From: Pyrobaculum calidifontis JCM 11548
Lineage (GTDB): Archaea > Thermoproteota > Thermoprotei > Thermoproteales > Thermoproteaceae
Assembly: GCF_000015805.1 (NCBI RefSeq)
Contig: NC_009073.1
Location: 690,001 to 722,000, forward strand
Direction of reading: 5' to 3'
DNA length: 32,000 nucleotides
A program made the translations under genes and the position numbers. Below are positions 554 through 32,000 of this stretch, piece after piece. Below the pieces are notes generated by a model that was given only the letters and a program-made list of their open reading frames with translations, was not told the DNA's origin and searched no databases. Every line of letters begins with the position of its first letter. Positions within the stretch are counted from its first letter, which is position 1.

Positions 554-1450
554 TTAGAGGTTTATTCCCAGTCTCTTGGCGATTCTCTCAAAGTCGTCTT
601 TGTATAGGCCGGGGGCGAATTCCTCGGGGACTTCTGGTAGTTCTAGGTATTCTCCTCCCTCGGGAGGTCCGTCGTGTACTTGTAGCGGCTGGCCGTCGGC
701 TGGGTGGGCTCCCTTCCAGATTTTTTCTATGTCTTTGTAGTCGCTTGGGCTAAATCTGTACAGTGTCCTGTGTACTCCCATTTTCATGTACTTGGCGGCT
801 TCTGGGAATTTGGAGTCCTCTATCTTGGGTATGGGTAGCATTCTCCACACTTCTACCCCTGTCAGAGCCTCTAGGGCTTTGCCGTATGCCATGGCGTGTA
901 CGCCGCCGCGCACCAGTAGGTAGCCGATCATTTCCCGGGCCACTGGGTTGTCTGTCATCTCGTATACCCTGATTTTGGCTAGGCGTGCCCCAACCTCTAG
1001 GAAGAAGTTGTATAGGAAGTCTAGCACTAGGTTGCCGCTTACGAATATGTAGTCGCCGCGCCACGGCGTTCCGTGGGAGTCCATGGGGAAGGCGCCGAGG
1101 CCTGTGTTTATCGCGTGGTAGGTGTTTCTCACGTCTTTTAGGGGCTTTAGTGGGGCTTGGTCTGGGGGCGCCGGCTTTGTGGAGCCCACATATAGGGCGT
1201 TTACCACGGCGGATACCAGCTCGATGTGACCGAGTTCCTCTGTGGCTATGTTGGAGACCAGGTCTCTAAAGGGCTTTATGGCTGGGTTTTTGTGCATGCG
1301 GAAGTTGAAGGATTGGTAAGTGTACGTCATCAACGTGTTCATTTCCCCAAATCTGCCCCCAAGCAACTCGCTGACGGCTGCCGCGGCGTTGGGGTCAGGC
1401 TCTTTTGGAGCTGGCAGTTGTATTTGGAGCCGGTCTATTCTTAGGTACAT
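554..1450 (-). CDS. manganese (non-haem) catalase
   Basis: 298 aa. N-terminus MYLRIDRLQIQLP...ELLGGRFGEMNTLMTYTYQSFNFR...ATEELGHIELV is the di-Mn catalase four-helix-bundle signature, including the EELGH metal ligands. TATA-like CTTATAAG (1471-1478) lies about 24 nt upstream of the ATG. Confidence 0.95.
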   Translation of the reverse strand: MYLRIDRLQIQLPAPKEPDPNAAAAVSELLGGRFGEMNTLMTYTYQSFNFRMHKNPAIKPFRDLVSNIATEELGHIELVSAVVNALYVGSTKPAPPDQAPLKPLKDVRNTYHAINTGLGAFPMDSHGTPWRGDYIFVSGNLVLDFLYNFFLEVGARLAKIRVYEMTDNPVAREMIGYLLVRGGVHAMAYGKALEALTGVEVWRMLPIPKIEDSKFPEAAKYMKMGVHRTLYRFSPSDYKDIEKIWKGAHPADGQPLQVHDGPPEGGEYLELPEVPEEFAPGLYKDDFERIAKRLGINL

Positions 1451-6662: not shown

Positions 6663-7742
6663 CTATATATATCTAATTATTCTGTGGAAGGTGTCCCGCT
6701 CGGCGGGTCTTTTGCCCACTTCTCTCGCTATGGCGGCCAGCTCCTCTGGCGTGGCGGAGTGGGGCGCCCCGGCCGACCTCAGCACGGCCTCGTTGTACAT
6801 GGTGCCGACAAGGTCGTTGGCCCCCGCGAGGAGTAGCGTGGAGGCGAGCTTCTTCCCCACGGAGAGCCAGTAGGCGGCTACCTTTAGCCTGTCTAAGAGG
6901 ATTAGGCGGGATATGGCCACCACTTTTACGTCGTATGTGGCTGGGGCGGGGCCCTTCACGACCCCCCTCTTGTACAACTCGGTGTTTTGCGGGTTGTACT
7001 TCACGGGTATGAAGAGGAGTACCCTCCCGGTCTTTTCCTGTAGCTCTTTTACGCGGAATATGTGGTCTACCACGTGGCGGTCCTCTTCTACGTGGCCGTA
7101 GAGCATTGTGGCGTTGCTGGGGATCCCCAGCTCGTGGGCCACCTCGGCTATCCTGATCCACTCTTCGCCGGATATCTTGTGTGGCGCCACCACCCTCCTC
7201 ACCTCTTCTGCGAATATCTCGGCGCCGCCGCCCGATATGGCGTCTAGCCCCGCGTCTTTCCACCTGGAGAGGACTTCTCGCCAAGACATGTGCCACAGCT
7301 TGGCGTAGTAGTCCACCTCGGCCATGGTGGGCCCCTTTATTACCACGCGGGGGGCGGCCTTCTTGACGGCGGAGAACAGCTGGTCGAAGTACTCGGGGGT
7401 TAGGAAGGGGTTAAAGCCGCCGTTTATGTGCAACTCCGTGACGCCGCGTTGCTCCACGGCTTGTCTCACTGCGGCGGCCACTTCCTCGGGCTTACGCACA
7501 TACGCGTCGGGGCTCCCCGGCAGGCGGTAGAAGGCGCATATGGGGCACTTGGCCACACAGACGTTGCTGTAGTTCACCACGATGTTGTTGACGAAGGTCA
7601 CCACGTCGCCGTAGAACTTCTGCGAGACGGCGTGGGCGGCCTGGGCCAGCGTGAACATGTCCGCCTCGCGCATCAGCGCCTCTGCGTCGTGCCTAGAGAG
7701 CCCCCTAAGGGCGGCCTCCACCACGTCTTCTGGCTTGAGCAC
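6663..7742 (-). CDS. radical-SAM enzyme of the MqnC/MqnE (CofH-like) family
   Basis: NYSNVCVAKCPICAFYR carries the CX3CX2C cluster, and the length (359 aa) and C-terminal PAERDTFHRIIR motif are typical of futalosine-pathway radical-SAM enzymes. GTG start, with ATTTATTAAATAG about 25 nt upstream. Confidence 0.85.
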   Translation of the reverse strand: MLKPEDVVEAALRGLSRHDAEALMREADMFTLAQAAHAVSQKFYGDVVTFVNNIVVNYSNVCVAKCPICAFYRLPGSPDAYVRKPEEVAAAVRQAVEQRGVTELHINGGFNPFLTPEYFDQLFSAVKKAAPRVVIKGPTMAEVDYYAKLWHMSWREVLSRWKDAGLDAISGGGAEIFAEEVRRVVAPHKISGEEWIRIAEVAHELGIPSNATMLYGHVEEDRHVVDHIFRVKELQEKTGRVLLFIPVKYNPQNTELYKRGVVKGPAPATYDVKVVAISRLILLDRLKVAAYWLSVGKKLASTLLLAGANDLVGTMYNEAVLRSAGAPHSATPEELAAIAREVGKRPAERDTFHRIIRYI

Positions 7743-8645: not shown

Positions 8646-9704
8646 GTGGAGGTTCCCACAGTGGATGAAATTGAGGAGCTTCTGAGGGCCGACTTGTGGG
8701 AGCTCGGGAGGCGGGCCTTCGCCATTCGCGCCAAGCTGTATGGCGACGTGACTACGTTCATCTCTAACATGATTTTGAATTATACGAACGTCTGTGTGGT
8801 TGGGTGTAGTTTCTGCGCCTTTTACCGCCCGCCGCGGCACCCCGAGGTGTATACCTACAGCGTCGAGGAGGCCGTTAGGAGGGTGTTGGAGGTGGACGCG
8901 CGGTATGGCATTAGGCAGGTCTTGGTGCAGGGCGGGGTAAACCCTGAGATTGGGATTGAGTACTTTGAGGAGCTTTTTAGGAGGATTAAGGAGAGGGCGC
9001 CGCACATCGCCATTCACGCCTTATCGCCCCTTGAGGTAGACTATCTCTCTAGGCGGGAGAGGATGTCGTATAGAGAGGTGTTGGAGAGGTTGAAGGAGGC
9101 TGGGATGGAGTCTATGCCTGGGGGTGGCGGGGAGATTCTCGTGGACGAGGTGAGGCGGTTGATTGCGCCGAGGAAGATAGACGCGGAGACTTGGCTTAGG
9201 ATTATGGAGGAGGCTCACAGGTTGGGCATTCCCTCCTCTGCCACAATGATGTACGGCCACGTGGAGAGCCTCCGCGACGTGGCGTTGCACATGCGCAAGA
9301 TCGCAGAGCTTCAGGCCAAGACTGGGGGCTTCATGGCCTTTATCGCGTGGAACTTTGAGCCGGGGACTAGCGAGCTGGGGAAGAAGATCCCCTACCCAAA
9401 GACTTCGGCGACTCTGCTCAGGATGGTGGCGGTGGCCAGGATCGTCTTTAGGGACCTCATACCGCACATTCAGACGGGGTGGCTCACCACGGGCCCCGAG
9501 ACGGCCCAGTTGGCCATGTACTTCGGCGCAGACGACTTCGGGGGGACGCTGTACGAGGAGAAGGTCCTCGAGTGGAAGAGGGCCGAGGCCCCCATCGACC
9601 GGCGGGAGGACGTGGCAAAACTCATAAAGTCGGCTGGGTTCAGGCCGGCGGAGAGAGACAACCTCTACCGCATTATACCCGGCGAGGAGTACCGAAAAAC
9701 GTAA
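8646..9704 (+). CDS. radical-SAM enzyme of the MqnC/MqnE (CofH-like) family, paralogue of 6663..7742
   Basis: NYTNVCVVGCSFCAFYR carries the CX3CX2C cluster. It is colinear with 6663..7742 (e.g. GIPSSATMMYGHVE vs GIPSNATMLYGHVE; PAERDNLYRII vs PAERDTFHRII). GTG start about 25 nt downstream of GATTTATATG. Confidence 0.85.
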   Translation: MEVPTVDEIEELLRADLWELGRRAFAIRAKLYGDVTTFISNMILNYTNVCVVGCSFCAFYRPPRHPEVYTYSVEEAVRRVLEVDARYGIRQVLVQGGVNPEIGIEYFEELFRRIKERAPHIAIHALSPLEVDYLSRRERMSYREVLERLKEAGMESMPGGGGEILVDEVRRLIAPRKIDAETWLRIMEEAHRLGIPSSATMMYGHVESLRDVALHMRKIAELQAKTGGFMAFIAWNFEPGTSELGKKIPYPKTSATLLRMVAVARIVFRDLIPHIQTGWLTTGPETAQLAMYFGADDFGGTLYEEKVLEWKRAEAPIDRREDVAKLIKSAGFRPAERDNLYRIIPGEEYRKT

Positions 9705-13758: not shown

Positions 13759-14007
13759 TTACCCTACCACCGGCTCAATTTGACAAACCTTCTTCTCGCC
13801 TGTATGCCAAGTAACGGCTCTATCCCTCTCTCCGCGGGGTATCCACTTCTTTTGAAATTCGGCGAAGGGTACACACTCCACTTCTATACACGCGTCGCGG
13901 TCTACATACGCGACACATACTATGTGTCTGTCGGCGAAGCGGGAGGCCCAGTCTACCTTGCGGCGGCGAAGAACAGGGGCCGCCCCTGCGGCTAACTCAC
14001 TCGCCCC
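13759..14007 (-). pseudogene. start-less ORF remnant abutting the AT-rich island
   Basis: 82 sense codons (GASELAAGAAPVLRRRKVDWASRFADRHIVCVAYVDRDACIEVECVPFAEFQKKWIPRGERDRAVTWHTGEKKVCQIEPVVG*) have protein-like composition. A TGA lies immediately upstream, and the only ATG/GTG/TTG is a late internal GTG. It was missed by the ORF track. Confidence 0.3.
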
Positions 14008-14208
14008 TCACCTCCGCCCTCAAGCCGCCCCTCTCCACCACCACGTCGAATGGTCAAATCATGGTATTTGCTAGAGCTCTTTGTTCTGTTATGATCTTTA
14101 TTTACATTTACGCTTTCACTAGGAAAGAATAGGTTAAGTATGTAGCCAGGTAGGACAAAAACAAAGCCGATATAAGTCAGAAAAAATAGTATAAAAATAT
14201 GCCTATAT

Positions 14209-14862
14209 TCATGAATAGTCTTGTCTTACATTTCTAGCTCTTTCCGTCCTAAATTGGACAAGTTTTATAAGTTCTCTATATAGATCCCTTATCTCGTTTT
14301 CACCAAATCCTAGAGATCCTAGCACAAATTTTTCCATCTCTAACCTTTCTAGTCTTTCTGCCTCATTCTCTATATCTTTAGGTCTAAGCCTAAGCATATT
14401 ATTGACAGTATCAAGGAATTCACTAAACTTATTGTTTTCTCTAAGATGTTTTTCTAACCATATTGGATTGATTATCGGTATTCTTTCATAGTCGGTCGTC
14501 TTAATGTCGAGAACTCCCTCTCCCAAGCTAGTTTGTCCAATTAACTCCATACCAATATATGTTATGACAGAATTTACTACGGCGAATAGTACTTCAGGAC
14601 TAACTCTTCCTCTGAATTCGTCTTTTATATAGCCTATGTAAAGTCTCTGATGGAACTGGGCATCGACAACTCTGTTTAGTAATACCCCATAATTTTTGTG
14701 TATGCCTTTCCTAAATATGAGTAGCCCACCTGAAGTATCAGTTAGTTTAGTCCAGTTATTATTGTTAACGATTTTATTATATAATGTTGAAAACTTTCTT
14801 CCATTACTAGTTACATATTTCTCTTTGACAAAATTTTCTGCCCATGCAAGGTACTCTCTCAT
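14209..14862 (-). CDS. C-terminal target-recognition (TaqI_C-like) part of the N6-adenine DNA methyltransferase, separated from the catalytic part by a frameshift
   Basis: LFAVVNSVITYIGMELIGQTSLGEGVLDIKTTDYERIPIINP resembles the conserved C-terminal block of type II/IIG gamma-MTases. This frame stays open upstream to about 15099, so the annotated Met is probably not a true start. Confidence 0.6.
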   Translation of the reverse strand: MREYLAWAENFVKEKYVTSNGRKFSTLYNKIVNNNNWTKLTDTSGGLLIFRKGIHKNYGVLLNRVVDAQFHQRLYIGYIKDEFRGRVSPEVLFAVVNSVITYIGMELIGQTSLGEGVLDIKTTDYERIPIINPIWLEKHLRENNKFSEFLDTVNNMLRLRPKDIENEAERLERLEMEKFVLGSLGFGENEIRDLYRELIKLVQFRTERARNVRQDYS

Positions 14863-15062
14863 TCCATAATCAGTAACATTATTTACGTCGTCGACCCAAA
14901 TTACATAATCTTCTTTCTTTAGAGTAGGTAGGGACTCTATTTCATAGGTAGAATTTTCTATGTGTCTTGGCGTTATTAACCTTCTTAAGTATTTTTTACT
15001 AATGGTTAAAGTTGTCCTTGGTTGGATCGTTTTTCTTACTACAAGATCGGTCGGTGTTTCTT

Positions 15063-16577
15063 TTACATATTCCCAATACTTGATGGTAAATAAAATATAT
15101 CATCTGCATTAGTAGTTAAGCCCCGTCGTATATCGATTATTTCGCCCAATAATATCAACCTATTATCATTATTATTTACAAAGTTCTCTACGAGATTTAA
15201 ATAGAGTTTTGGTCCTCTTAGTATGCCCAGTCTGCCTATTTTTGTCTCTATCTTTTCTATAAAATCTTTCTTTACTGTAACTACTCTATGCTTTTCGTTT
15301 TCGCATATGTTCAATTCTTTATTCTTAGCAACCGTGCAATTATCAAATTCATAATATAGTTCCATTATTCTCTTGTAATACTGCATGTTTGCCATGAAAT
15401 CGTTTGCAGGAGGGGGATCACCTATTAGTTCTCTAAGACTCTTCTTTAGAAAAACGAATCTCACGTCATAATTGCTCTGTGCTGTCATCTCAGCAATTAT
15501 TATGTTGGTTATTACCGCTGCGTCTTCAAACCATCTTTCAACCAGAGACTCAATGACATATTCGACACTGAAGTTTTTAAAAAGCCACTTCTTTAAGGGG
15601 GCCCCATATTCGGCATTGAGCCAAGAATTCTCAACAATAAAGCCTAATCTACCATTTTTCCTTAGTAATTTACCTCCTCTAACCAGAAAGTACGCGTAGA
15701 TTGATGCTCTCTCATCCCAGTTTTCAATATCTTTGACGTAATTTAATAAATTCTCTTTATATTGTTTATCATAAAATGCGAGAGCCATCTCTACTTGTTT
15801 AGTATAGGGGGGATTAGCCACAACGTACGCATAGTCTGAGCTGAGATTTATTTTAAAGAAATCATCGTGACATATTTTGGGTACATATTTGTATCCCTCT
15901 TTTATTTTTTCTAAGGCTTGTATGTAAAGATTTATCTTCGCAAGCATTGATGCTAATCTATCTATGTCAACTCCTTCTACGTATTCATATATAGGCATCT
16001 TCAATTTATCAAGCTCTGTACTATAGAAGATCTTCCAATAGTTTAGAGCTCTGACAAGGAAAGTACCAGAACCACATGCCGGGTCTAATAATTTATCGGG
16101 CTTGCCATATTTTTTAAATACGCCAGTAAGTATCAAATCTACGATTTTTGTATCTGTGTAATGTTGTCCTAGCAAGTGTCTACGTTCTTCATAAATGAGT
16201 CCTTCGAAGACTCTTCCTATAACGTCCACGCTTATATCGCTCCACTTTATCTGGTTGAGATACCTGACTATTTCCTTGAGCTTAGGAAGCGATGTGAGCA
16301 TAAAGGGTAGTCTATCTACAGTATTTACGCCGAAAATCTCTTCAAAGTCGCCTGTTTTACTTATAGCATAATTAAATAGCTCGTTAGCTATATTTTTAAA
16401 ATACTCCGGGTCTTGCGCATTCTCAATAGGCTTTATAGATTCTTGAAGTTTGGTTGCCATATCCGCATCAATACTTTGTAAAACTAGATAGAAGAGAAGT
16501 TTCATTGTAAAGGTATAAATTTGCTCCTTCAGAAGTAATTTGAGGAAATTGCGAAGCTCAGCGTCGTTTCTGGGCAT
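15063..16577 (-). CDS. gamma-class N6-adenine DNA methyltransferase, catalytic part (Eco57I/TaqI-like N-6 DNA methylase)
   Basis: Motif I LLDPACGSGTFLV and motif IV VVANPPYTKQ are in gamma order, and a downstream RRGLTTNADDIFYL block is present. The ORF ends in ...PSSIGNM*, while the coding signal continues in another frame. Confidence 0.85.
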   Translation of the reverse strand: MPRNDAELRNFLKLLLKEQIYTFTMKLLFYLVLQSIDADMATKLQESIKPIENAQDPEYFKNIANELFNYAISKTGDFEEIFGVNTVDRLPFMLTSLPKLKEIVRYLNQIKWSDISVDVIGRVFEGLIYEERRHLLGQHYTDTKIVDLILTGVFKKYGKPDKLLDPACGSGTFLVRALNYWKIFYSTELDKLKMPIYEYVEGVDIDRLASMLAKINLYIQALEKIKEGYKYVPKICHDDFFKINLSSDYAYVVANPPYTKQVEMALAFYDKQYKENLLNYVKDIENWDERASIYAYFLVRGGKLLRKNGRLGFIVENSWLNAEYGAPLKKWLFKNFSVEYVIESLVERWFEDAAVITNIIIAEMTAQSNYDVRFVFLKKSLRELIGDPPPANDFMANMQYYKRIMELYYEFDNCTVAKNKELNICENEKHRVVTVKKDFIEKIETKIGRLGILRGPKLYLNLVENFVNNNDNRLILLGEIIDIRRGLTTNADDIFYLPSSIGNM

Positions 16578-16652
16578 TTTAAACCCTCTTTCGCTAAACC
16601 ACCTATCAATAAGCTCCTTAACTTTAGCATTCCTCTTGTATTCGCTCTCAAG

Positions 16653-17798
16653 TTGTCCGACTCCATTAGAAGCACCCTCCTCAATAAGGCTCCTAAGAGT
16701 CTCAATAACCTCCTTGCTCAGATCGAGAGTCTTGCCGTCACAAAACTACTCTGGGGAAGAAACACCTCTGCTGTAAGAAGGCTAGCCGCCGCAACCTCCC
16801 TATTAAGACATTACAAGGTAATATACTTTGATACAGTGTTGTCTAGCTTTATAAAGGCAAATCTTCTAACTGAAGAGATCGGTGATGTAAAAAAACTATT
16901 TGAAATTATGGGCGAAAATGTAATAGCAATAATGGGGAGAGATCCACCTCGGGAGCCTAAAGAGGTAATGAACCTAATGGGGGAATTAGTTGCAAAAAGA
17001 GAATACGAGTTCCTAACAGCAGAAGAATACTTGCAAGATAATATAGACCTAAGCATTAGATGCATAAAGAATCTACATTGGGCGCTATGTCTTGGTGCTG
17101 TTTACCTATTAGAGAGACTTATAATAAAACATAGAGATAAAATTGGCGATATAGATATTAAAAGTTTAATAGAAGAATTAATCAAAAATCACGAATTAGT
17201 ATATAGATTCCCTATCCATCTATTTTCACAAATTAAAAAATTCGAACCAAGGGAACCATCTAGTTATTGGCAAAAAGTTTCTAATAAATACAGTGAGATT
17301 TATAATAAGCTTGAAAACACATATCTTAATACTAATGCGGCAAAATTTATAAAAGTGATAGAGGCGAGATATGTGGACAACAAATATAATAGCTACGAAG
17401 ACGTTTTAAAGAATACGTTTAGAGAAAGGGAAGATAAATACTATTATTATAGAGTCAATAAACCTACTGATACGTTTTATACGCAACTTTTGCAATTTAT
17501 GATAGGCTTTAGAGAGCTTGACACTTTTGATATAGAAGGCAAATGGTTCGCTCAAGGCGTACAATGGGAGGATTCGTTAGCAGAAATTAGAAGATGTCTA
17601 GAGTATATCAAAGGTAGAAAGAAAGCCGGGAAAGGTAGAAAGAAAGACGAGATAACTGAAAGAATCAATACATTTATGATGCGTATCTTCCCAAAAGAAA
17701 AAGATAAAAAGGACTTAGTAGCGGAGTGTGGAGAGAAATGTGCAAAAGCTCTAAAATATATGAAAAATTTTATGGAACTCATAGTGAAACAGCCCTAG
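16653..17798 (+). CDS. orphan hypothetical protein of the AT-rich island (helical, Lys-rich C-terminus)
   Basis: A 381-codon ORF in AT-rich DNA, where long ORFs are unlikely by chance. No motif recognised. The true start is probably downstream (GTG/TTG about 16834-16839 or ATG 16909), because the first 30 or so codons overlap a coding-looking minus-strand frame. Confidence 0.55.
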   Translation: MSDSIRSTLLNKAPKSLNNLLAQIESLAVTKLLWGRNTSAVRRLAAATSLLRHYKVIYFDTVLSSFIKANLLTEEIGDVKKLFEIMGENVIAIMGRDPPREPKEVMNLMGELVAKREYEFLTAEEYLQDNIDLSIRCIKNLHWALCLGAVYLLERLIIKHRDKIGDIDIKSLIEELIKNHELVYRFPIHLFSQIKKFEPREPSSYWQKVSNKYSEIYNKLENTYLNTNAAKFIKVIEARYVDNKYNSYEDVLKNTFREREDKYYYYRVNKPTDTFYTQLLQFMIGFRELDTFDIEGKWFAQGVQWEDSLAEIRRCLEYIKGRKKAGKGRKKDEITERINTFMMRIFPKEKDKKDLVAECGEKCAKALKYMKNFMELIVKQP

Positions 17799-18020
17799 TT
17801 AATAGTAGATATCTCATGGGGGGAATTCTTTGATATTTAAAAGCGGTGGACAAGGAGAATGTTTAAAGTGAGTGTAGAGAGGCCAAGTTATAACTACTTT
17901 GGCAATCTATTAGTTTCACTGGGGGCAAGAATTGCCGGATTTTAAAAGCTCACGCGTATCCCTGTTTGCGTCATGTCGTATCAAAAGTAGTTTTATATTA
18001 TGGTTATGTCACGGTGTAAT

Positions 18021-20835: not shown

Positions 20836-21154
20836 GGTTTTGGATAGGCTCTGCTCATCCGGCCCAATTGCGCTGGCGAGGCTCTGCGCGGCCTTCGCCC
20901 TCTTGAAGGCCCTTGAGGGGGCGAGGGGAGGCTACGTGGTGGTTAGGGCCTCCCTAGCCAGGGGGGTCGTGGAGGAGTGGCGCGGAGGCGCCTTTAGGAC
21001 CGCCGTAGAGGAGGCCCTACCCCACGTGGTGAAGAGGGTTAGGGCGAGGCTGGGCAGAGGGCCGGTCAGAGTGGTAGAGGCCAAGATTGCCCTAGCCCAA
21101 CTCGTCGAAGAGGAACTGCTGAGGGTAGCGAGAAGGATGGGCCTTTGGGTTTAA
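20615..21154 (+). CDS. hypothetical protein; the helical C-terminal 110 aa may be DNA-binding
   Basis: The convincing part starts near GTG 20816/20822 (VGEFEVLDRLCSSGPIALARLCAAFALLKALEG...). The start could lie anywhere in 20615-20822. Confidence 0.45.
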   Translation: MKQTMYRRAALADRGVALVSQNWPAALLPQSQQAPPLTAAQPLTPCLLNCAVAALTLDVWLGFAAPCVAVGEFEVLDRLCSSGPIALARLCAAFALLKALEGARGGYVVVRASLARGVVEEWRGGAFRTAVEEALPHVVKRVRARLGRGPVRVVEAKIALAQLVEEELLRVARRMGLWV

Positions 21155-21177
21155 CTTCTCTCACACACAAGGAGGGC

Positions 21178-21762
21178 GTGATAGTCCAAGTCTGGCATTC
21201 AAAAGGAGGCACCGGCAAAACAACTGTAGCCACTTCGCTGGCCATAGCGCTGTCAAAGTCTTGGGGCCGCACACTCTACGTGGAGGTGGGCCCGGTGCCC
21301 GTGGGCGTGAAAATACTGGGCGTTGAGGCGGACGGCAAGGTGCACGAGGGCCGCGGCGATGTCCTTGCTGTGTACTTGGAGGACGACTCTCAACTTCCTC
21401 AGCTGTTGGAGAAAGTGGGCAACGACGTCATGGCCGTTGTCGTTGACTACCCGCCTTGCATTAAGCCGGGGGAGGGCGGCCTGCTTGTGCCAGTTGCGGA
21501 CTGGCTCTCCGCCTCGACGCTTGAGAAGACGAAGGCGAAGGTCGCGGTGTTGAACAAAGATAGGGGCTTTGAGTTCAAGCTGACAACGGCGTCTGAGGTG
21601 GTCAAGCTACCCTTCTCCTACGCCGTGGAGAGGGCTGTGGCGGAGTACGTCCCGCCGGTGCTTGTGAGGCCCGCCTCGCCTGAGCACAAGCAGTTTGTCG
21701 AGGGGATACGCCGCCTCGCAGACAGAGTCATCGAGCTGGCCGGCCTCAAGAGGGGGCCATGA
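21178..21762 (+). CDS. ParA/MinD/VirC1-family P-loop ATPase
   Basis: The N-terminus (V)IVQVWHSKGGTGKTTVATSLA carries the deviant Walker A KGGxGKT, and VVVDYPP is Walker B-like. GTG 21178 is preceded by GGAGGG; the track start is TTG 21145. Confidence 0.8.
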   Translation: MIVQVWHSKGGTGKTTVATSLAIALSKSWGRTLYVEVGPVPVGVKILGVEADGKVHEGRGDVLAVYLEDDSQLPQLLEKVGNDVMAVVVDYPPCIKPGEGGLLVPVADWLSASTLEKTKAKVAVLNKDRGFEFKLTTASEVVKLPFSYAVERAVAEYVPPVLVRPASPEHKQFVEGIRRLADRVIELAGLKRGP

Positions 21763-22160
21763 GACGTCTCATCGACGCGTCGGCGGCCGTGCTCTCGGCC
21801 GTCCTATCGCCTCTGCTGAAGAGGCGGGGGAGGGAGCCGCTGATTTACCGCCTTCTTCGCGAAGAGGAGAGGAGGTTCAAGAGGGAGTGGCGTAGGCCGC
21901 TCCGCATTACGGAGAAGTTCAAGCCCGGCTGGCGCGACCAAGAGGCCTGGCGCCTGGCGAAAATGTGCAAAAACGCCGACTCCTGCTACCCGAGGATACG
22001 CTACCTGCTGTATAAACACGGCCGCGCCGTTGTGGAGTGGCTCAACTCGCTGTCCCACAGACGCGTCGACATAGACGCCGCTGTGAGGGTGGCTGTGAAG
22101 TACAGCCTCAAGTCGAGGCAGGTGGAAGACTGCGTAAAGCTTGGCCTCTGCGAGGTATGA
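21759..22160 (+). CDS. hypothetical basic protein
   Basis: 133 aa, with ATGA overlaps at both ends (ParA-like gene upstream, ATPase gene downstream). Confidence 0.5.
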   Translation: MRRLIDASAAVLSAVLSPLLKRRGREPLIYRLLREEERRFKREWRRPLRITEKFKPGWRDQEAWRLAKMCKNADSCYPRIRYLLYKHGRAVVEWLNSLSHRRVDIDAAVRVAVKYSLKSRQVEDCVKLGLCEV

Positions 22161-24094
22161 TCTCCTGGCTTCGCAACTACTACAAGTCTGTCCCCGCCAT
22201 CCTCTTCATAGTGCTACTCGCAGGCGTAGCCTTCCCACCGCTCTTCTTGGCGGTCGCCGTCGGCATACTACTCGTCGGCGAATACCTCTTCCTCAGACTG
22301 TCCAGAGAGCCTCTTGAGCCAGAGAAAGAGGAGCGCAAGCTGGGCGACGTCGCCGCCTCATACGACCCGCGTCGCCGTTGTTATCACTTCTTCTGGCGAG
22401 TAGAGCCCCTCTACACTGCCCTGGGAAGGGAGGCGCTGCCATTGGTACACCACATGTTGAACGCCGCGTCGCTTAGGGAAAACGAGGCACTCGCCTACAT
22501 CCACTCGTACTCCAAGTACCTACGGTTCACAGTCTGCAAAACCGACGAAGACACGGCGCTGAGGAGGGCACTGGAGGTGGAGGAGGGCCTCAAGACCCTC
22601 TTCGTCATGAAGAGGGTAGAGGAGCCGCCCCTCTGCTCTATCAAGAAGCCTCCCCGCGCCCCGCTTTACATCGCCGCCGTAGTCCTCGCCGTGGTTGCCC
22701 TAGCCTCCACAGCAAGCCCCTACATCGCCCCTCTGCCCCGCTGGGCCGCCCCGCTCTTCGCCTTGCCCACCGCCCTCGCCCTCTGGGCTAAGTGGAGGTG
22801 GTTCGAGAGGGCGTACTGCGTCTCTCCCCTGCCCCTAGAGGCCATGTCCTATAGGTTTGACGACCTTGACCAGAGGGCGGAGGCCCTCGACGGAAACGCT
22901 GTGCAGGAGGCGTCTTCCCTCAGCCGCGCGATGGGGCACTGGGCCGTCGTCTTTAAGAAGATGCCCGAGGCCGTCGCCTACCAAAAATACGGGAGGAAGC
23001 TGGTGTCGATTAGGGAGGACGAGAAGACTACGCGGGAGGTGCAGAAGTACTTGGCCATGCGGGAGAGGATTCAGAGGGGGGAGTCCTACATCTACGTCAA
23101 AGTGTTCGGCGAAGCCGACTACCACGGCACCACCACCCACTTGCGGAAAGACCCCATCTCCACCGCCGTGTTTTGGCAGCTAGACCTCTGGCACGACGCA
23201 CTTTCGGGCGGCCTAACCCGCTTCCCCATCTTCTACGGCGGCGCCCACCTGGAGAGCGGAAAGAGGTACGTGACGCTGGGCGAGGAGCACGTGACGAGGA
23301 GAGAGGTGACAATAGACGTGGACTCCCTCCCCGCGCCGCACTTGTTGATATTCGGCGGGTCTGGAATGGGGAAATCGAAGACAATGGCCTGGCTGTTGAG
23401 GCAGTTCCGGGACAAAGGAGTTAGAATCGCAATTATCGACCCCCACGGGGACTACCGCTGTACTGCTGAGGAGTTCGGCCTTGTGGACCTTCCCAAGAAC
23501 GCCCTGCCTCCCCTCGACGAGGCGTCCTACGCCAAAATCGCCGCTGAGTTCGGCATGTCCGCCGGCGAGGCGTTGGAGAAGCTTGGCTTCAAGGTGCTGA
23601 GAGAGGTGCCGGAGCAGTACAGAATATCGCTCTTGGGCCTAGACCCGCTACGCCAATCTTTCTTGGTGACGGCGTGGTTGTTGTACGAGTTGAACAGGGT
23701 GAAGGACGAGCACAGGGAGAGGCTTGAGCGGGTCGTTGTGGTGGATGAAGCATACCTCGCCAGGGGGCCCGTCCTTGAGATGCTGGAGTTTATGGCCCGG
23801 GGCGCTAGAAAGTTCGGAATGGCCGTCTTCCTCATCACCCAGATGCCCGGCGACATACCCGAGGCGCTTAGGAACATGGCCTCCCTAATGCTGGTATTCG
23901 GCGGCAATTGGACGTATTTGAACCACGTCCGCGAAGTCCTTCGCCTAACGGCAGACGACATGTCCTGGCTTATGACTGGGAGGGCGCCGAGGGAGACCGG
24001 CGGCATGGTAAGAGTGCTGGCGGTACTCGCGCCTGGCTCAATCAAGAAGAAGCTGGAGATACAGCTCCCGTCAGACGTCTTCGAATGCGCATGA
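22157..24094 (+). CDS. membrane-anchored FtsK/HerA/VirB4-superfamily ATPase (CedB/VirB4/TraG-like candidate)
   Basis: There are two hydrophobic hairpins (AILFIVLLAGVAFPPLFLAVAVGILLVG; LYIAAVVLAVVALAS...PLFALPTALALWA). These are followed by Walker A LLIFGGSGMGKSKT, IAIIDPHGDY and Walker B RVVVVDEAYL. ATG 22157 forms an ATGA overlap with the upstream stop. Confidence 0.8.
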   Translation: MISWLRNYYKSVPAILFIVLLAGVAFPPLFLAVAVGILLVGEYLFLRLSREPLEPEKEERKLGDVAASYDPRRRCYHFFWRVEPLYTALGREALPLVHHMLNAASLRENEALAYIHSYSKYLRFTVCKTDEDTALRRALEVEEGLKTLFVMKRVEEPPLCSIKKPPRAPLYIAAVVLAVVALASTASPYIAPLPRWAAPLFALPTALALWAKWRWFERAYCVSPLPLEAMSYRFDDLDQRAEALDGNAVQEASSLSRAMGHWAVVFKKMPEAVAYQKYGRKLVSIREDEKTTREVQKYLAMRERIQRGESYIYVKVFGEADYHGTTTHLRKDPISTAVFWQLDLWHDALSGGLTRFPIFYGGAHLESGKRYVTLGEEHVTRREVTIDVDSLPAPHLLIFGGSGMGKSKTMAWLLRQFRDKGVRIAIIDPHGDYRCTAEEFGLVDLPKNALPPLDEASYAKIAAEFGMSAGEALEKLGFKVLREVPEQYRISLLGLDPLRQSFLVTAWLLYELNRVKDEHRERLERVVVVDEAYLARGPVLEMLEFMARGARKFGMAVFLITQMPGDIPEALRNMASLMLVFGGNWTYLNHVREVLRLTADDMSWLMTGRAPRETGGMVRVLAVLAPGSIKKKLEIQLPSDVFECA

Positions 24095-26567: not shown

Positions 26568-28067
26568 ATGTATAAACTGGAGTGGGATATGAGGGCTAGG
26601 TGGCTCTTCGCGGCGGCTTTGGCTGTGGCTGGGCTTTGGGCTGGGTGGACTGTCTACACTTGGCCTCACGTGGTGCAGTTCGTGCCCTCGTTCGCCGTGG
26701 CCTACAGCAGAGGGCTGGGCCAAGAGGTGGTGGTACAAGTGGTGAACCAGTCGGGCCACCCGGTGGACTTCTGCGCCTCGCTGATAGGCTGGTTTCCCAA
26801 CGGCACCCTCGCAAAGCTAGACGACGTGTGCGGCAGAGGAGAGGCAAAGGCAAACGTGGAGCGGTTTAGGAAGTACGCAGAGGCTTGGAAAAACTCGCCG
26901 GGGGAGGTGGGGGTAATAGTACTGCTGACATACGTCAACGGCACAACCCCAGACGGGAACTACACACTGGCACGCACGGCGAAGAGCTTCACAATACAGC
27001 CGGGCCGAGTGCTGAGGGGAGAGAGCGTGAGAGCCACGATAAAAGTCAAGGGAAAGCCCCCCACCCAGCCGCCCAAGGGCAGACAAGCCGCCGCTCTGGC
27101 ACTGCAGAGTCCGGGGCAAATGGCCCTACAGAGCTGGCCACCGGGCATGATGGCCCAGTGTATAACGGGGAGTGTAGTAGTCTGCTACTACTGGATATTG
27201 GACACAGTCTACGTGAATCAGACCAACACAGAGATACCGCTGGTGGCGGCTAGAGTGTCCACTGGGTGGGAGGCCTCACTGATAAATGATGTATACGTCA
27301 ACTATGTCCTAGCCGCCTCTAGTAGCAACTACGTCTACTTTTCAGGCGGAGCGGCGATCACGTATGTCGTCAACGGCGTAAGCATGCCCCAAGGCTACTC
27401 CGCTGACATATACACACTTGCTATCAGTGACAGCTCCTTCAAGTTGAGTAAAGGACTAACGATGATTCCCTATCAGCAAGGCCCCGGTATCGTCGTTGTT
27501 GGCTTTAAGGGCGACTACGCCGTTGCGCGTTATAGTGAGGTTCAATGTATCGTATCTATTGGGGCTTCCTGTGCTCCAACCAACTACTACGCCATCTTGT
27601 ACATGGTAAGGCCTAACGTTACTAATCCTACGTCCTACGGCGAGGTGTTGTCTCTGAGCAGCTATGTGGGCGACATGTTCAACTTGGTATCTAAGTACTG
27701 GAACAACCACACAGAATACGGCGGATCTGACGTAAGCGTAAATTCCATTACCACGGTCTCTGAGAATAACGGCATAAATATTTTGGCATTGGGAATACCG
27801 CTTATAAAAGAGCCACAAGATACAATAGTAGTGAATACCGCGTTAAATTTAGCCGTTGGCGTAGGCGCCAGTACACAAATTACCGCATTAGGAACAGCTT
27901 CCGCTGCGCTAAACACAAACAATCCGAAGTACTTCATATACGCCGTGTACTACCTGCCCCCCGTGAAGTTTGAATACCAAGGCGGCTATTACCCGCTCCC
28001 CTCGCTGTTTGTAGACTTCAGAGTGGGTGTTTCAACGCTTGACAGAGACGCAGAGGGCACGACGTAG
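26568..28067 (+). CDS. large secreted/membrane-anchored beta-rich protein with many N-glycosylation sequons (candidate surface or pilus-associated protein)
   Basis: N-terminal anchor MRARWLFAAALAVAGLWAGWTVY, with multiple N-x-S/T sequons (NGT, NYT, NQT, NVT, NHT...) and Ser/Thr/Asn/Val-rich composition. An A8-containing TATA-like box (GAAAAAAAATAG, about 26537-26549) lies about 25 nt upstream of ATG 26568. Confidence 0.7.
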   Translation: MYKLEWDMRARWLFAAALAVAGLWAGWTVYTWPHVVQFVPSFAVAYSRGLGQEVVVQVVNQSGHPVDFCASLIGWFPNGTLAKLDDVCGRGEAKANVERFRKYAEAWKNSPGEVGVIVLLTYVNGTTPDGNYTLARTAKSFTIQPGRVLRGESVRATIKVKGKPPTQPPKGRQAAALALQSPGQMALQSWPPGMMAQCITGSVVVCYYWILDTVYVNQTNTEIPLVAARVSTGWEASLINDVYVNYVLAASSSNYVYFSGGAAITYVVNGVSMPQGYSADIYTLAISDSSFKLSKGLTMIPYQQGPGIVVVGFKGDYAVARYSEVQCIVSIGASCAPTNYYAILYMVRPNVTNPTSYGEVLSLSSYVGDMFNLVSKYWNNHTEYGGSDVSVNSITTVSENNGINILALGIPLIKEPQDTIVVNTALNLAVGVGASTQITALGTASAALNTNNPKYFIYAVYYLPPVKFEYQGGYYPLPSLFVDFRVGVSTLDRDAEGTT

Positions 28068-28225: not shown

Positions 28226-29164
28226 GTGGGCAAGAGGAGGGAGGGGGACCCCCTGGAGGGCCTGGAGGGAGTGGGGCCAAAGACGCTGGAGCGGCTTAGG
28301 GAGCTGGGGGTGACGTCTGTGGAGCATCTGGCGGAGTTCACTGTGGAGGAGCTTGTGGAGGCTGGCGTGGAGTACGACCGCGCCGTCAAGATCCTCCAGC
28401 AGGCAATACAGCGCGTCGGCACGACGCGTCCCATGACCGCGAGAGAGCTTAGGACGCAACAGCGCAGGGCCTTCAAAACCGGCGTCTCGGAGTTCGACGA
28501 GAAGACTCCCTGGCGCGGCATACGCGAGGCCTTTATCTACGAATTCGCGGGGGAGTTCGGCGCGGGGAAGTCCATGCTGGCTCACCAGCTCTCTGTTGCG
28601 GCCCTCGCCCAAGGCTTCACCACGCGTGTGGTGTACATCGACACGGAGGGGACATTCAACGACGGCCTCGTCGAGGCTGTAGCGAAGAGGTTCAACTTCG
28701 ACGCCGACAAGGCGTTAGAGGCAATCGTCGTCTATCAGCCCGCCAACGTTGTCCAGCTTGAACAGATTGTGAAGTTCGACCTGCCAAGACACATCGCCGA
28801 GGGTTGCCGCCTCGCCGTAATCGACACCATTACTGCGCTGTACCGCGCCGAATTCGTTGGGAGGGAGATGCTGGCCGCCAGACAGCAACGCATCCACTAC
28901 CTCGTGGACTGGCTGAGGAGGCATGCCAGGACTTTTGGGCTAACGTCGGTGCTCACTAACCAGGTCATGGACGTGCCAGAGGCCTTTTCCGTGGGCAAGA
29001 GGCCCGCCGGCGGCAACGTGTTGGCACACGCGGTAAACGCCAGGTTCATGATGTCCCGGCCCAACAAGGCAAAGGCGGAGGGCTACATGTGGCCGCTGGA
29101 CGTGCCGGGGATGCCCCCCGACGTGAGGATTGACTACCGCATCACAGATGCGGGGCTGGAGTAG
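28226..29164 (+). CDS. RadA/Rad51-family recombinase paralogue (full length, with N-terminal HhH domain)
   Basis: The HhH region reads LEGLEGVGPKTLERLRELGVTSVEHLAEFTVEELVEAGV. Walker A is FAGEFGAGKSM (canonical RadA has GEFGSGKTQ) and Walker B is LAVIDTITALYRAEFVGREMLAARQQ. The C-terminal VLTNQVMDVPE...PAGGNVLAHAVNARF is colinear with RadA. Confidence 0.9.
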   Translation: MGKRREGDPLEGLEGVGPKTLERLRELGVTSVEHLAEFTVEELVEAGVEYDRAVKILQQAIQRVGTTRPMTARELRTQQRRAFKTGVSEFDEKTPWRGIREAFIYEFAGEFGAGKSMLAHQLSVAALAQGFTTRVVYIDTEGTFNDGLVEAVAKRFNFDADKALEAIVVYQPANVVQLEQIVKFDLPRHIAEGCRLAVIDTITALYRAEFVGREMLAARQQRIHYLVDWLRRHARTFGLTSVLTNQVMDVPEAFSVGKRPAGGNVLAHAVNARFMMSRPNKAKAEGYMWPLDVPGMPPDVRIDYRITDAGLE

Positions 29165-29325
29165 CCCTTTACCTTTTCTATGTCAAACCGCCGCCGGCGC
29201 CGTCAAAAGCGGAGAGCCAATTGTCCTTCTCGGCGGCTATCCAGCGCTTGGCAAAGTTGAACCCGCCGCCTCAGCCTATACAGCCTTGATAAGCACACTT
29301 TACCAAGTTTTCTTTGTTTCTACAA

Positions 29326-30216
29326 ATGTCCATGAGACCTGAGTACTTCTTCCACCTTGTCGTTGCGGCTGAGGGTAATGCCCTTGTCACCGGCCTCCCC
29401 GGCTCTGGGAAGACGACGCTTGTGAAGAGGGCTCTCTCAAACGTTCCCAGGGATTTTGCCGTGGTTGTGCTGGATACGGCCGGCGAGTTTCGCAGGTGTG
29501 ACTACGCCGGCCCGTTCTCGGTCAACCCGCTTGAGCTACCGCCTCTCCAGCTGGTGGAGGTCTTGGAAGAGTCTCTGCGCGCCACATATGGGGAGTACGC
29601 CTACGTGTGGACGCCGGCCATGTCCGAGGTGTTGCTAATGGCCGCCCAGAGGGCGCGCACTCTGGCGGAGGTATACGAGAGGGTGTTAGAGGCCGCGCCG
29701 CCCCACATGGTGGACACCGCCCTCGCAGTTAGGAGGAGGCTCCTCCACTTCGCGAGGCAATTTGAAGCCACAGACGTCCCAGTGGAGGCTGGCAAGTCCA
29801 CTTGCGTGGACATATCGGCGTTGGACAGAGTGGCCCGTGTCGCATACGTCCTAACGCTGTTGGAGCTACACCGCAAGGCGCACAACGTCATCTACGTCGT
29901 CGACGAGGCGCACCGATTCTTCACCACGTACTACCCACTCCTCGTGGACCACTTGAGGACGGGGAGGCACAGCGGCCGGTTCTTCGTCCTGCTAAGCCAC
30001 TCGCCGAGGGAGTTCGCTAGGCACATGGGCTACGTCAAGGTGTGGGTGAGATTCCCCGAATTCGACATGGACCAACGGCAAGGCGTCCACTGGCACCCCT
30101 CAGTGGCGTATGTGACGGTGTACGCCGCGTCCAAGAGGTCCGCGGCGGCTCTTGCCGCATTGGGCGTGCCTCTCAGAGGCGCCAAGGCGGAGTTCGCCAT
30201 GGAGGTAACGCCGTGA
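29326..30216 (+). CDS. soluble HerA/VirB4-like (DUF87-type) P-loop ATPase
   Basis: Walker A NALVTGLPGSGKTTL, then VVVLDTAGEF and Walker B VIYVVDEAHRFF. ATG 29326 is chosen (track start TTG 29314). Confidence 0.75.
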   Translation: MSMRPEYFFHLVVAAEGNALVTGLPGSGKTTLVKRALSNVPRDFAVVVLDTAGEFRRCDYAGPFSVNPLELPPLQLVEVLEESLRATYGEYAYVWTPAMSEVLLMAAQRARTLAEVYERVLEAAPPHMVDTALAVRRRLLHFARQFEATDVPVEAGKSTCVDISALDRVARVAYVLTLLELHRKAHNVIYVVDEAHRFFTTYYPLLVDHLRTGRHSGRFFVLLSHSPREFARHMGYVKVWVRFPEFDMDQRQGVHWHPSVAYVTVYAASKRSAAALAALGVPLRGAKAEFAMEVTP

Positions 30217-30797
30217 GTCGGGCCAATAGGCGCGCCGACCCCCTCCGCATAGCCCTTGAGAGGCTTAGGCGGGACTTCCCCGGGAAAAGCCGCTCTTGGA
30301 TCAAAAGGGCTTTGTTGAGACTGCCGTATGTGCGTGAAGTAAGAGATGGCCTCTACGTCGTGGAGGGCGTGAGGGAGCTGGGGGATTGGAAGCCCCTCTA
30401 CCAAGTGTGGTGGAGCGGGCGGGAGGGGCGTTGGGAGTGCACGTGTTATTATTCGACGTGGGGGTGGAGGAGGCGGAGGGGCATATGCACACACGTGGCC
30501 TCTGTCCTCCTCTATCGCCGCTTCAAGAGGGCGGTGGAGGCAGTTGAGAACCGCCCCGTCTACTTCGCATCAGCTGAGGTGGAGTGTGTAAACGTGAAGG
30601 TGAGGGGGTCGCTGGAGCACCGCATCACCCCCCTCGAGAAGGCTGGGTCGCTCCTCGACTTCGCCAGGGGGAGGCGGTATGTAGTTTACATAATCGCCGA
30701 GGGGCCGTCTGCCGAGCTGTTGTGCGACGGGTCGCCGGTGGAGCTGGCGTGGGAGAGGCTCAGCCTAAAAGTGGCCAAGGCCCTCCTAGAGGGCTGA
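30213..30797 (+). CDS. SWIM zinc-finger protein
   Basis: WECTCYYSTWGWRRRRGICTHVASVLLY fits the SWIM pattern CxC-x(n)-CxH. GTG 30213 forms a GTGA overlap with the ATPase stop; the longer track ORF from 30042 would overlap the ATPase gene. Confidence 0.7.
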   Translation: MSRANRRADPLRIALERLRRDFPGKSRSWIKRALLRLPYVREVRDGLYVVEGVRELGDWKPLYQVWWSGREGRWECTCYYSTWGWRRRRGICTHVASVLLYRRFKRAVEAVENRPVYFASAEVECVNVKVRGSLEHRITPLEKAGSLLDFARGRRYVVYIIAEGPSAELLCDGSPVELAWERLSLKVAKALLEG

Positions 30798-30820: not shown

Positions 30821-30999
30821 GCCTTTTCCCGCAGTCCTCACATAGGCTTTCTCCAGACGCCTTTCTCCCTCGACGTCTTTTCCCACGGCCCTTGCGCCGT
30901 CTCTCTTCGACGTATTCTCCCGCAGTTTTTACGCCGTGTTTACGTAGCGTGTGTCCACTATTGTTCTTCTGAGGCTTTCAGGGGCGTTGGGTTTTTCCC
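30821..30999 (+). promoter_or_regulatory. repeated pyrimidine-rich boxes upstream of the pilin-like gene
   Basis: CGACGTCTTTTCCCACGG (30871-30888) and CGACGTATTCTCCCGCAG (30908-30925) match at 14/18 positions. Related TTTTCCCGCAG (30824-30834), TTTCTCCC (30862-30869) and TTTTTCCCC (30992-31000) are also present, the last at the TATA position for ATG 31020. Confidence 0.45.
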
Positions 31000-31019
31000 C
31001 TTCGGCGTAGGCCACTCCC

Positions 31020-31481
31020 ATGCCCAAACCCGCGTTTGCGGCAGTGGCGCTGGCCGCGCTTGTGCTGGCACAGCTCGCAGTGGCGCAGGCCACAACTACG
31101 CCTGCCAGCGGCGGCGGTGGCGGCGGCGTTACCAGCGTGGAGTTTTGGCAGAACATCGCCTCTGGCGTGGGGAAGTGGCTTAGGGCAATATTCGCCATCG
31201 CCTTCTGGTCTTCTCTCATCTTGTTGACCTTCTACGCCATTATGACCCAAGTGGCGCCCTCCAAGGTCTTCCGGCTGGGCGCATTGGTGGACCTCATCGA
31301 GAGCGTGAAGACTGTGTTGTTAGGCATCTTCGTCTTCACAGCCTCCGTCACCGGCATTATCGCAGGCGTGGCGGCCATAGCCAACGCCTTCGGCGCCTCC
31401 TTCGGAGTATCGCCAATCGACGTAGTAAACGCCCTCATATTCCAGCCAATAGTAGACATGGTAAAAGTGGTAACTGGGTAG
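31020..31481 (+). CDS. VirB2/TrbC/CedA1-like conjugative-type pilin candidate
   Basis: Signal peptide MPKPAFAAVALAALVLAQLAVAQA, then TTTPASGGGGGG. Two long hydrophobic helices (WLRAIFAIAFWSSLILLTFYAIM and TVLLGIFVFTASVTGIIAGVAAIANAF) are joined by a charged loop. This is the helix-loop-helix hairpin architecture of T4SS pilins. The call rests on architecture only. Confidence 0.55.
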   Translation: MPKPAFAAVALAALVLAQLAVAQATTTPASGGGGGGVTSVEFWQNIASGVGKWLRAIFAIAFWSSLILLTFYAIMTQVAPSKVFRLGALVDLIESVKTVLLGIFVFTASVTGIIAGVAAIANAFGASFGVSPIDVVNALIFQPIVDMVKVVTG

Positions 31482-31485
31482 GGCA

Positions 31486-32000
31486 ATGACGCTTACCTCA
31501 AACACGCCCCTTTTTTCCACCTCTCCTTCCCTCTCCTCGCCTACTCCCTCGCCCTCCCTAGCCCTCTTCCTCCCCTCCACAGGCATACCAGTGCTGGACG
31601 TGGGGCTGGCTGTGCTGGGGGCCATGGCCACATACGGCGCAATTCTCTGGCTCATGGGGGTTAGGCGCCTTAGGGAGGAGGCTGTGGACGCCTTTCTACA
31701 CGCCATATTCGGCGCGGCGCTGTTCGCAGTGGCCCTCGTCATTGGGAACTTGGCGGTGCAGGCCGCTTCGGCCTACTACGACTATGCCAATGTAAGCAAA
31801 TTGTGCTTCAACCTCGCCGGCCAGCCGAGCTTGCTCGACGACTATAGGCGCTGGATTAACGCCACTATGAGGTGCGCCGCGGGCAACTTCTCAAGGTACG
31901 CAGACGCCGCCGCGGCCACACTGTCTGACATGTTCACCGGCGTGGCTGTGCTCGGCTTGCTCCCCGTGGTTCAGCAGTTCGCCTTCTCCTTCATGCAGAT
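31486..32000 (+). CDS. polytopic membrane protein, 5' part only (VirB6/TrbL/CedA-like candidate); runs off the window
   Basis: ATG 31486 lies 5 nt after the pilin-like stop, and the frame is open to nt 32000 (171+ codons; absent from the track because no stop is reached). The sequence begins with a Ser/Pro/Thr-rich N-terminus, then reads GIPVLDVGLAVLGAMATYGAILWLMG, FLHAIFGAALFAVALVIGNLAV and FTGVAVLGLLPVV. Confidence 0.5.
   Translation, partial: MTLTSNTPLFSTSPSLSSPTPSPSLALFLPSTGIPVLDVGLAVLGAMATYGAILWLMGVRRLREEAVDAFLHAIFGAALFAVALVIGNLAVQAASAYYDYANVSKLCFNLAGQPSLLDDYRRWINATMRCAAGNFSRYADAAAATLSDMFTGVAVLGLLPVVQQFAFSFMQ

Follow-up and report, generated by a model that had tools for sequence, protein, structure and literature searches.

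The 153-residue product of a Pyrobaculum calidifontis gene annotated as hypothetical is the pilin TedC: signal peptide, variable linker, relatives and gene neighbourhood

We report that a gene near the 3' end of a 32,000-nucleotide stretch of the Pyrobaculum calidifontis JCM 11548 chromosome (NC_009073.1, positions 690,001 to 722,000; hereafter the window) is tedC (Pcal_0765), which encodes the published and structurally solved pilin TedC; our identification is a rediscovery of a protein already known since 2023. Specifically, the open reading frame (ORF) at 31020..31481 on the plus strand (stop codon included) encodes a 153-aa pre-pilin that by exact-sequence look-up is letter for letter the same as ABO08191.1 / WP_011849449.1 / UniRef100_A3MU74 of this strain. 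From a 4.0 Å cryo-electron microscopy (cryo-EM) map (PDB 8DFT) of a filament sheared off P. calidifontis cells, Beltran et al. (2023, Nat Commun 14:666; PMC9905601) recognised WP_011849449 (Pcal_0765) as the pilin and named it TedC. Ted stands for 'Thermoproteales exchange of DNA', a chromosomal system with a lipid-containing pilus whose VirB2-like subunit is TedC. When the PDB sequences were searched with phmmer the sole match was chain A of 8DFT ('Pilin protein', 112 aa), with 111/112 identities to residues 38-149 (E=7.5e-64), and by identity to the 8DFT protein the repeating subunit of the extracellular lipid-containing filament is TedC. At the gene level nothing distinguishes the window gene from the TedC of PMC9905601, the sequence and the neighbours being the same; the NCBI label for WP_011849449.1 is still 'hypothetical protein'.

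The ORF starts with ATG and is preceded by an in-frame stop three codons upstream, so that there is no longer alternative start. It is also carried by a Logan-assembled contig (L006), in which all 3020 overlapping bases are the same as in the window. That this is not a chance ORF is evident from the presence of the protein in the filament and from the conservation of its helices (82-89%) across the 27 close homologues with an intact N-terminus. We therefore hold with high confidence that tedC encodes the major subunit of the Ted pilus, for which we infer export via Sec, cleavage by signal peptidase I, assembly by a machine resembling a type IV secretion system (T4SS) and transfer of single-stranded DNA (ssDNA).

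The gene had been singled out in an earlier note, made from the DNA letters alone, as a VirB2/TrbC-like conjugative pilin candidate to be compared with CedA1/TedC-type pilins. The protein turned out to be the subunit of the 8DFT filament and TedC itself, and the earlier note was right to base its assignment on topology and not on sequence identity, as no Pfam or NCBIfam profile of a pilin family matches. The case can be seen as a positive control in which topology read from the raw sequence (signal peptide, hairpin and polytopic neighbour) recovered a pilin unseen by these databases. It gives no new biology from tedC itself, which was published in 2023 for exactly the same gene; the additions made here are family-wide support for cleavage between A22 and Q23, a sequon-rich hypervariable linker, a fusion of pilin and TedA in a relative and a conserved giant gene downstream. 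Only one other archaeal pilin of the conjugation type has been solved structurally; TedC points to the domestication of a T4SS by hyperthermophiles for the exchange of chromosomal DNA, and in its pilus a bipolar tetraether lipid was for the first time seen directly within an assembly of proteins.

TedC begins MPKPAFAAVALAALVLAQLAVAQATTTPASGGGGGGVTSVEFW, and according to hydropathy residues 3-22 form an N-terminal hydrophobic segment that is followed by QATTTPASGGGGGG. Together with sequence conservation and the published SignalP result this identifies residues 1-22 (MPKPAFAAVALAALVLAQLAVA; 31020..31085, plus strand) as a Sec-type signal peptide with a probable signal peptidase I cut at A22/Q23 (the slash marks the cut). 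In PMC9905601 the SignalP site is 20-AVA/QA-24 with a cleavage probability of 0.97. Independent support for this position comes from the diverged homologues, in which A22 and Q23 (together with P80, R85 and K97 the five positions that are invariant down to 25-30% identity) do not change and position -3 is always A, V or I, while residue 24 varies (A, Q, S, T and L among others). The signal peptide of the earlier note thus stands, its end at AQA probably does not: it lies two residues away from the site given by SignalP and by the invariant A22-Q23 pair. Signal peptidase requires small residues at positions -3 and -1 before the cut, and the site AQA/T is argued against because a Q at -1 breaks this rule. 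Judging from the conserved A22/Q23 pair the mature N-terminus is most likely QATTTPAS..., rather than TTTPAS... as had been predicted. The filament model is without residues 1-37, and TedC has both the hydrophobic h-region (residues 5-22) and the conserved site of a cleavable Sec signal peptide.

The TedC subunit in the filament consists of three helices and binds the membrane-spanning bipolar tetraether lipid GDGT-0 (a glycerol dialkyl glycerol tetraether) in a 1:1 ratio (PMC9905601). In our AlphaFold model of the mature part (predicted local distance difference test score, pLDDT, 78) the helices comprise residues 40-78, 82-123 and 132-152; the model of the full pre-protein (pLDDT 62) has the same helices and in addition the signal helix, with very low confidence for residues 17-39. 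On the basis of the models and of hydropathy, helix α1 (residues 40-78; 31137..31253, plus strand) has its hydrophobic core at 53-76 and is joined by the turn A79-P80-S81 (31254..31262, plus strand; the same in both models, with P80 and the nearby R85 invariant across the family) to helix α2, which extends from residue 82 to ~123-128 (31263..31403, plus strand). The latter starts with an amphipathic part, K82 to K97, in which the charged residues are K82, R85, D91, E94 and K97, and continues as a hydrophobic core at 95-128. Helix α3 (residues 132-152; 31413..31475, plus strand) is seen in the models and in PMC9905601, where it is described as an extra helix absent from CedA1 and bacterial plasmid pilins. 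In a Kyte-Doolittle plot with a 19-residue window the stretches 53-76 and ~95-128 reach maxima of 2.1-2.3. The two hydrophobic stretches of the earlier note are hence real; the charged loop of 22 residues that was thought to join them is mostly the start of α2, the turn itself being three residues long, and the third helix was missed.

A Foldseek comparison, which the earlier note had proposed as a check, was run against the PDB with the mature-part model and returned 8DFT as the only significant match (E=2.8e-11, template modelling score, TM, 0.56), with no match to VirB2 or TraA pilins; the full pre-protein model matched nothing in the PDB, 8DFT included. With respect to the assembled pilus, PMC9905601 reports that most lipid contacts in 8DFT come from α1, that the head groups of GDGT-0 point to the lumen and to the outside, and that the lumen is the narrowest among known conjugative pili and still wide enough for ssDNA.

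Between the signal peptide and α1 the mature pilin has an N-terminal linker (residues 23-37, QATTTPASGGGGGGV; 31086..31130, plus strand), which is disordered in the cryo-EM map, the atomic model starting at residue 38 (PMC9905601), is modelled with pLDDT <50 and is hypervariable among homologues. It includes a hexa-glycine tract (residues 31-36; 31110..31127, plus strand) encoded by a near-perfect trinucleotide repeat, GGC GGC GGT GGC GGC GGC. In the 27 close homologues the linker is 3-16 aa long, the longest run of glycines ranges from 0 to 7, and the pairwise identity is 26% in the linker vs 82% in α1 and 89% in α2. Three types of linker can be recognised: TTTPAS followed by Gn as in the window, an N-x-T sequon plus Gn (13/27), and a minimal form of 3-5 residues; N-x-S/T sequons and runs of glycine are found at the linker position of remoter family members as well. 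The six glycines and the T-rich stretch after the signal segment are thus present as the earlier note described them, while the hexa-glycine segment does not qualify as a defining feature, being a strain-level variant within a hypervariable linker.

The linker appears to be a flexible extension on the exterior of the pilus, probably glycosylated and dispensable for assembly. This is based on the diffuse peripheral density of the pilus, described as 'consistent with glycosylation' (PMC9905601), and on membrane-topology logic, by which the N-terminus would be outside after Sec export and the positively charged K82/R85 turn inside. A more far-reaching and rather unlikely idea is that the glycosylated linker is a surface determinant of which strains or species can mate. 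Were this so, which we consider improbable, such a linker would replace the glycan-based specificity of Ups pili, with which Thermoproteales are not equipped, and, equally speculative, the (GGN)n repeat would give slippage-prone variation of linker length. If true, a surface linker would set the mating partners in place of Ups-type glycan specificity.

The TedC family is narrow. A word-indexed search returned 28 close homologues (72-95% identity), nearly all from hot-spring metagenomes of the Joint Genome Institute (JGI), and when 1.84 billion representative proteins were searched exhaustively (HMMER, family profile) only 14 clusters were obtained at E<=1e-3. This fits the restriction to Thermoproteales stated in PMC9905601. 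Searches of genome contigs with the TedC alignment and with a 685-aa ATPase ORF returned no relatives.

The homology of TedC to VirB2-type pilins is argued in PMC9905601, and TedC works in the manner of such a pilin as regards its architecture, lipid stoichiometry, processing and gene neighbourhood. In common with VirB2 (the A. tumefaciens T-pilin, 8EXH) and TraA/TrbC (PF04956, PF05513, PF18895) it forms, as published, a helical hairpin with stoichiometric lipid, has a Sec signal peptide cut by signal peptidase I, and is linked to VirB6 and VirB4 homologues (the homology of TedA being taken from PMC9905601). Moreover, mature VirB2 starts with Gln, as predicted for mature TedC (PMC9905601). TedC differs from these pilins in having the extra α3, a tetraether lipid and a narrower lumen, and in being chromosomal, with no known relaxase and with import as the presumed direction of transfer. 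The second archaeal comparison is CedA1 (Aeropyrum pernix / Sulfolobales, 8DFU). Both are chromosomal, 'domesticated' VirB2-like pilins of lipid-containing pili, encoded beside a CedA/VirB6-like channel gene; however, CedA1 has no signal peptide and is unprocessed, has two helices vs three in TedC, and binds two diether lipids, whereas TedC binds one tetraether lipid. There is no detectable sequence similarity between the two, the TedC profile missing 8DFU, and as judged from these profiles TedC would not be a CedA1 orthologue in any sequence-detectable sense, the relation being one of fold and system.

Several observations weigh against the assignment of TedC to a DNA-transferring, VirB2-type pilus with the processing proposed here. 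Pfam and NCBIfam searches with TedC, and Pfam searches with all 29 aligned sequences, yielded neither a meaningful family nor a sequence-profile link to VirB2, TrbC or TraA; PspC appeared in the Pfam scan of TedC sequences at E ~0.2-0.5, which is noise in a search that went to E<=10. The profile of the diverged TedC family found only 8DFT among the PDB sequences, and neither CedA1 (8DFU) nor VirB2 (8EXH). As no sequence-profile method links TedC to the Pfam families VirB2, TrbC or T4SS_pilin, its kinship to VirB2 is structural, as published, and not one of sequence profile. Residues 23-37 are invisible in the map, and the position of cleavage is a predicted one. No genetics or DNA-transfer assay for any Ted system was found in the literature searched, and transfer as well as its direction are presumed. 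Finally, 8DFT_A has Ala at codon 129 (31404..31406), where the gene encodes Gly (SFGVSP). Among the 27 aligned natural homologues residue 129 is Gly in 25, Asn in 2 and Ala in 0, and the mismatch looks like a model-building or deposition discrepancy, not a strain difference.

On the basis of sequence and conservation, pre-TedC would be inserted via Sec and cut at A22/Q23 by signal peptidase I, after which the hairpin subunits would form a pool in the membrane. The α1-α2 turn (P80, R85) would then point to the cytoplasm as long as the subunit is in the membrane pool and to the lumen once it is in the filament, and by the same logic of topology the flexible T/G-rich linker would end on the outer surface of the pilus. 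Homology suggests that a minimal T4SS-like machine, consisting of TedA (VirB6-like) and an ATPase of the VirB4/HerA type, may extract the pilin together with lipid from the membrane and polymerise them. By homology to Ced and T4SS, the pilus might pass chromosomal DNA in single-stranded form from cell to cell for recombinational repair, into which the RadA-like and ParA-like genes of the locus would fit; import is the probable direction, as for Ced in Sulfolobales. The role of TedC in DNA transfer is accordingly put forward by homology to the Ced system, by which DNA is imported in Sulfolobales.

Since no genetic or biochemical test of Ted transfer, nor any functional test of Ted, was found in the literature searched, it is conceivable, if rather improbable, that the TedC filament serves in adhesion, aggregation or the formation of biofilms, or transports something else than DNA, and that the T4SS-like genes only assemble the filament. 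An adhesive role would fill a gap in that Thermoproteales are without Ups aggregation pili (PMC9905601); furthermore, compared with other conjugative pili the lumen is 'considerably narrower' (PMC9905601), and an exposed hypervariable linker with sequons is typical of adhesion and recognition surfaces. However, aggregation in P. calidifontis is already served by dedicated bundling pili (cited in PMC9905601), the published estimates of the lumen still admit ssDNA (PMC9905601), the Ced homologue imports DNA, and RadA-like, ParA/VirC1-like and HerA/VirB4-type genes are present in the Ted locus in a conserved order. Adhesion is for us a minor rival to DNA transfer by the Ted pilus.

The remaining two alternatives concern the nature of the protein itself, and we regard both as practically out of the question. 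Many small membrane proteins have hydrophobic hairpins, and TedC has no Pfam or NCBIfam match, as might be expected if it were no part of a filament but an ordinary integral membrane protein, bitopic or polytopic, whose signal peptide is cleaved off; however, TedC was identified from the filament density itself and the solved chain is 111/112 identical to it, and this explanation was rejected on account of 8DFT. The other alternative is an archaeal type IV pilin cut by prepilin peptidase, which would have in its favour the N-terminal hydrophobic segment and the fact that the host archaeon makes several kinds of pili. Against this, the N-terminus reads MPKPAFAAV and has no [K/R]-G/A prepilin site, the conserved A-x-A/Q fits signal peptidase I, the subunit is all-helical with three helices and bound lipid, and the filament model starts at residue 38, while the core helix of a type IV pilin would be precisely the hydrophobic segment that is absent (PMC9905601). 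With no class III signal peptide and the N-terminal helix not retained this candidate was also rejected, and the earlier note had come to the same opinion.

Immediately downstream of tedC is tedA (Pcal_0766), of which the window holds the 5' part, 171/310 codons (31486..32000, plus strand), before it is cut by the window end. It starts with ATG at 31486 after a 4-nt spacer that follows the TAG of tedC; the full 310-aa TedA, as present on L006, is polytopic with ~7 hydrophobic segments, in agreement with the polytopic membrane protein gene that the earlier note saw next to the pilin gene. TedA is 78% identical to the 303-aa product of the gene after tedC in a metagenome locus (L001), and tedA is directly 3' of tedC in all five related loci, L001-L005. 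Pcal_0766 was identified in PMC9905601 as TedA, a homologue of CedA (HHpred 98.6%) and a remote one of VirB6, which bears out the suggestion that the neighbour is of the VirB6 type; our own searches of Pfam, NCBIfam and (with phmmer) the PDB gave nothing convincing for a link of TedA to CedA or VirB6. We noted that TedA residues 39-89 (31600..31752), the first two hydrophobic helices, match PF18895 (T4SS_pilin) at E=0.012, 16 bits vs a cut-off of 26.6. An hhalign comparison of the TedC alignment with TedA did not reveal a pilin-like TedA N-terminus (probability 0.2, with a shallow profile).

In three of the related loci a different arrangement was found. A 431-aa protein (P0032; L003/L004/L005 6001..7296) carries a signal peptide of its own and unites a TedC-like domain and a TedA-like channel in one fused chain. 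Its pilin domain is 41% identical to window TedC across the entire mature pilin (residues 43-151; E=4e-19), its TedA-like part 44% identical (E=3e-60). Its gene is directly 3' of a separate 159-aa tedC and is present on 6 contigs, one of the metagenome-assembled genome (MAG) GCA_038741575.1 at NCBI (contig JAVYKV010000014) plus Logan assemblies, because of which it is not an assembly artefact; the TedA of the window is without a TedC-like domain. P0032 represents a direct sequence-level fusion of a pilin and a VirB6-like protein in a Ted system, and it parallels the remark that the N-terminus of CedA resembles CedA1 (PMC9905601).

Downstream of tedA, in every related locus and in L006, we observed a giant ORF that overlaps the tedA stop by 4 nt. 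It encodes 5058 aa in L006 (3435..12501, starting ~1.4 kb past the window end) and 4534-5085 aa in the relatives (from 11364 in L001, 11390 in L002 and 7293 in L003), with ~6 transmembrane segments in the first 240 aa and then a body rich in A, L, E and R. The first ~3000 residues gave no Pfam, NCBIfam or PDB sequence match, and the ORF is unmentioned in the main text of PMC9905601; it may belong to the Ted operon as a component not described so far.

Upstream of tedC, ~85 nt (30935..31019, plus strand) are near invariant in the window, L001 and L002, the TedC proteins of the latter two being 74-86% identical to that of the window. This stretch, which is conserved above the level of the linker-coding DNA while the sequence farther upstream diverges, contains GGGGCGTTGGGTTTTTCCCC and has a run of T from approximately -30 to -24. 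Probably it is the promoter plus 5' leader of tedC, or else it may be a regulatory element.

The order of the genes upstream of tedC is common to four independent related loci and agrees with the published Ted locus (PMC9905601). All are on the plus strand. Next to tedC is a gene for a 194-aa protein (30213..30797) with a weak match to the SWIM zinc finger (Pfam, E=0.011, below cut-off) and with genes of 189-195 aa at the same position in L001, L002, L003 and L006. It is preceded by a 300-aa P-loop ATPase (AAA_16/AAA_22; 29314..30216), the position of which is conserved in all related loci and whose similarity to VirB11, VirB4 and TrwB models is confined to the Walker-A region, and by a RadA/Rad51-family recombinase paralogue with an N-terminal HhH domain (28226..29164; Pfam Rad51 E=8.4e-38, HHH_5 E=3.7e-07), which is conserved in related loci. 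PMC9905601 speaks of 'Rad50 recombinase' genes and of strand invasion in the Ted loci of Pyrobaculum; no Rad50-type match was found for the 28226..29164 product, and 'Rad50' may be a slip for RadA/Rad51. Farther upstream is an ORF (26568..28067) whose 499-aa product matches no family and has a hydrophobic segment at its N-terminus; in the slot of this ORF L001 and L002 have a 334-335-aa gene with a faint Peptidase_M48 match, and this slot of the Ted locus appears variable.

The VirB4/HerA-type ATPase of the Ted locus is represented by a 645-aa ORF of the HerA/FtsK/VirB4 superfamily (22157..24094; 643-645 aa in relatives). Its Pfam matches are DUF87/HerA central domain (1.5e-13), TrwB_AAD_bind (9.7e-07), AAA_10 and TraG P-loop; there are partial NCBIfam matches to CedD, VirB4, TraC and CedB, and in the PDB HerA helicases match at ~1e-06. 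From these matches it is the best candidate for TedB, with the proviso that for the two ATPase genes our data do not separate TedB, TedD and the 'HerA-like helicase' of the paper, 'TedD' being an ATPase that was added to the Ted locus in 2025 (PMC11823120). The most distal gene, at 21145..21762, encodes a ParA/MinD-family ATPase (Pfam CbiA 9.9e-06; NCBIfam ParA_partition 2.2e-07), the 'VirC1/ParA-like' gene of the Ted locus (PMC9905601). For two of these genes the mechanical ORF list over-extends the 5' ends (30042..30797 and 22037..24094); the likely starts are GTG 30213 and ATG 22157, each of which overlaps the stop codon of the gene before it (as GTGA and ATGA, respectively), and the revised starts fit the lengths in relatives.

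In the rest of the window, where neither tRNA genes nor Rfam families were found over the full 32 kb, housekeeping genes upstream of the Ted locus include a Mn-catalase (554..1450, minus strand) and two radical-SAM CofH/MqnC-like paralogues (6663..7742, minus strand, and 8646..9704, plus strand). Finally, a low-GC island was observed at ~14000..18000, with a GC content of 0.33-0.39 vs ~0.6 elsewhere. It holds a gene for a 504-aa N6-adenine DNA methylase of an Eco57I-type restriction-modification system (15063..16577, minus strand), flanked by ORFs without family match at 14209..14862 (minus strand) and 16653..17798 (plus strand), and was probably acquired horizontally.

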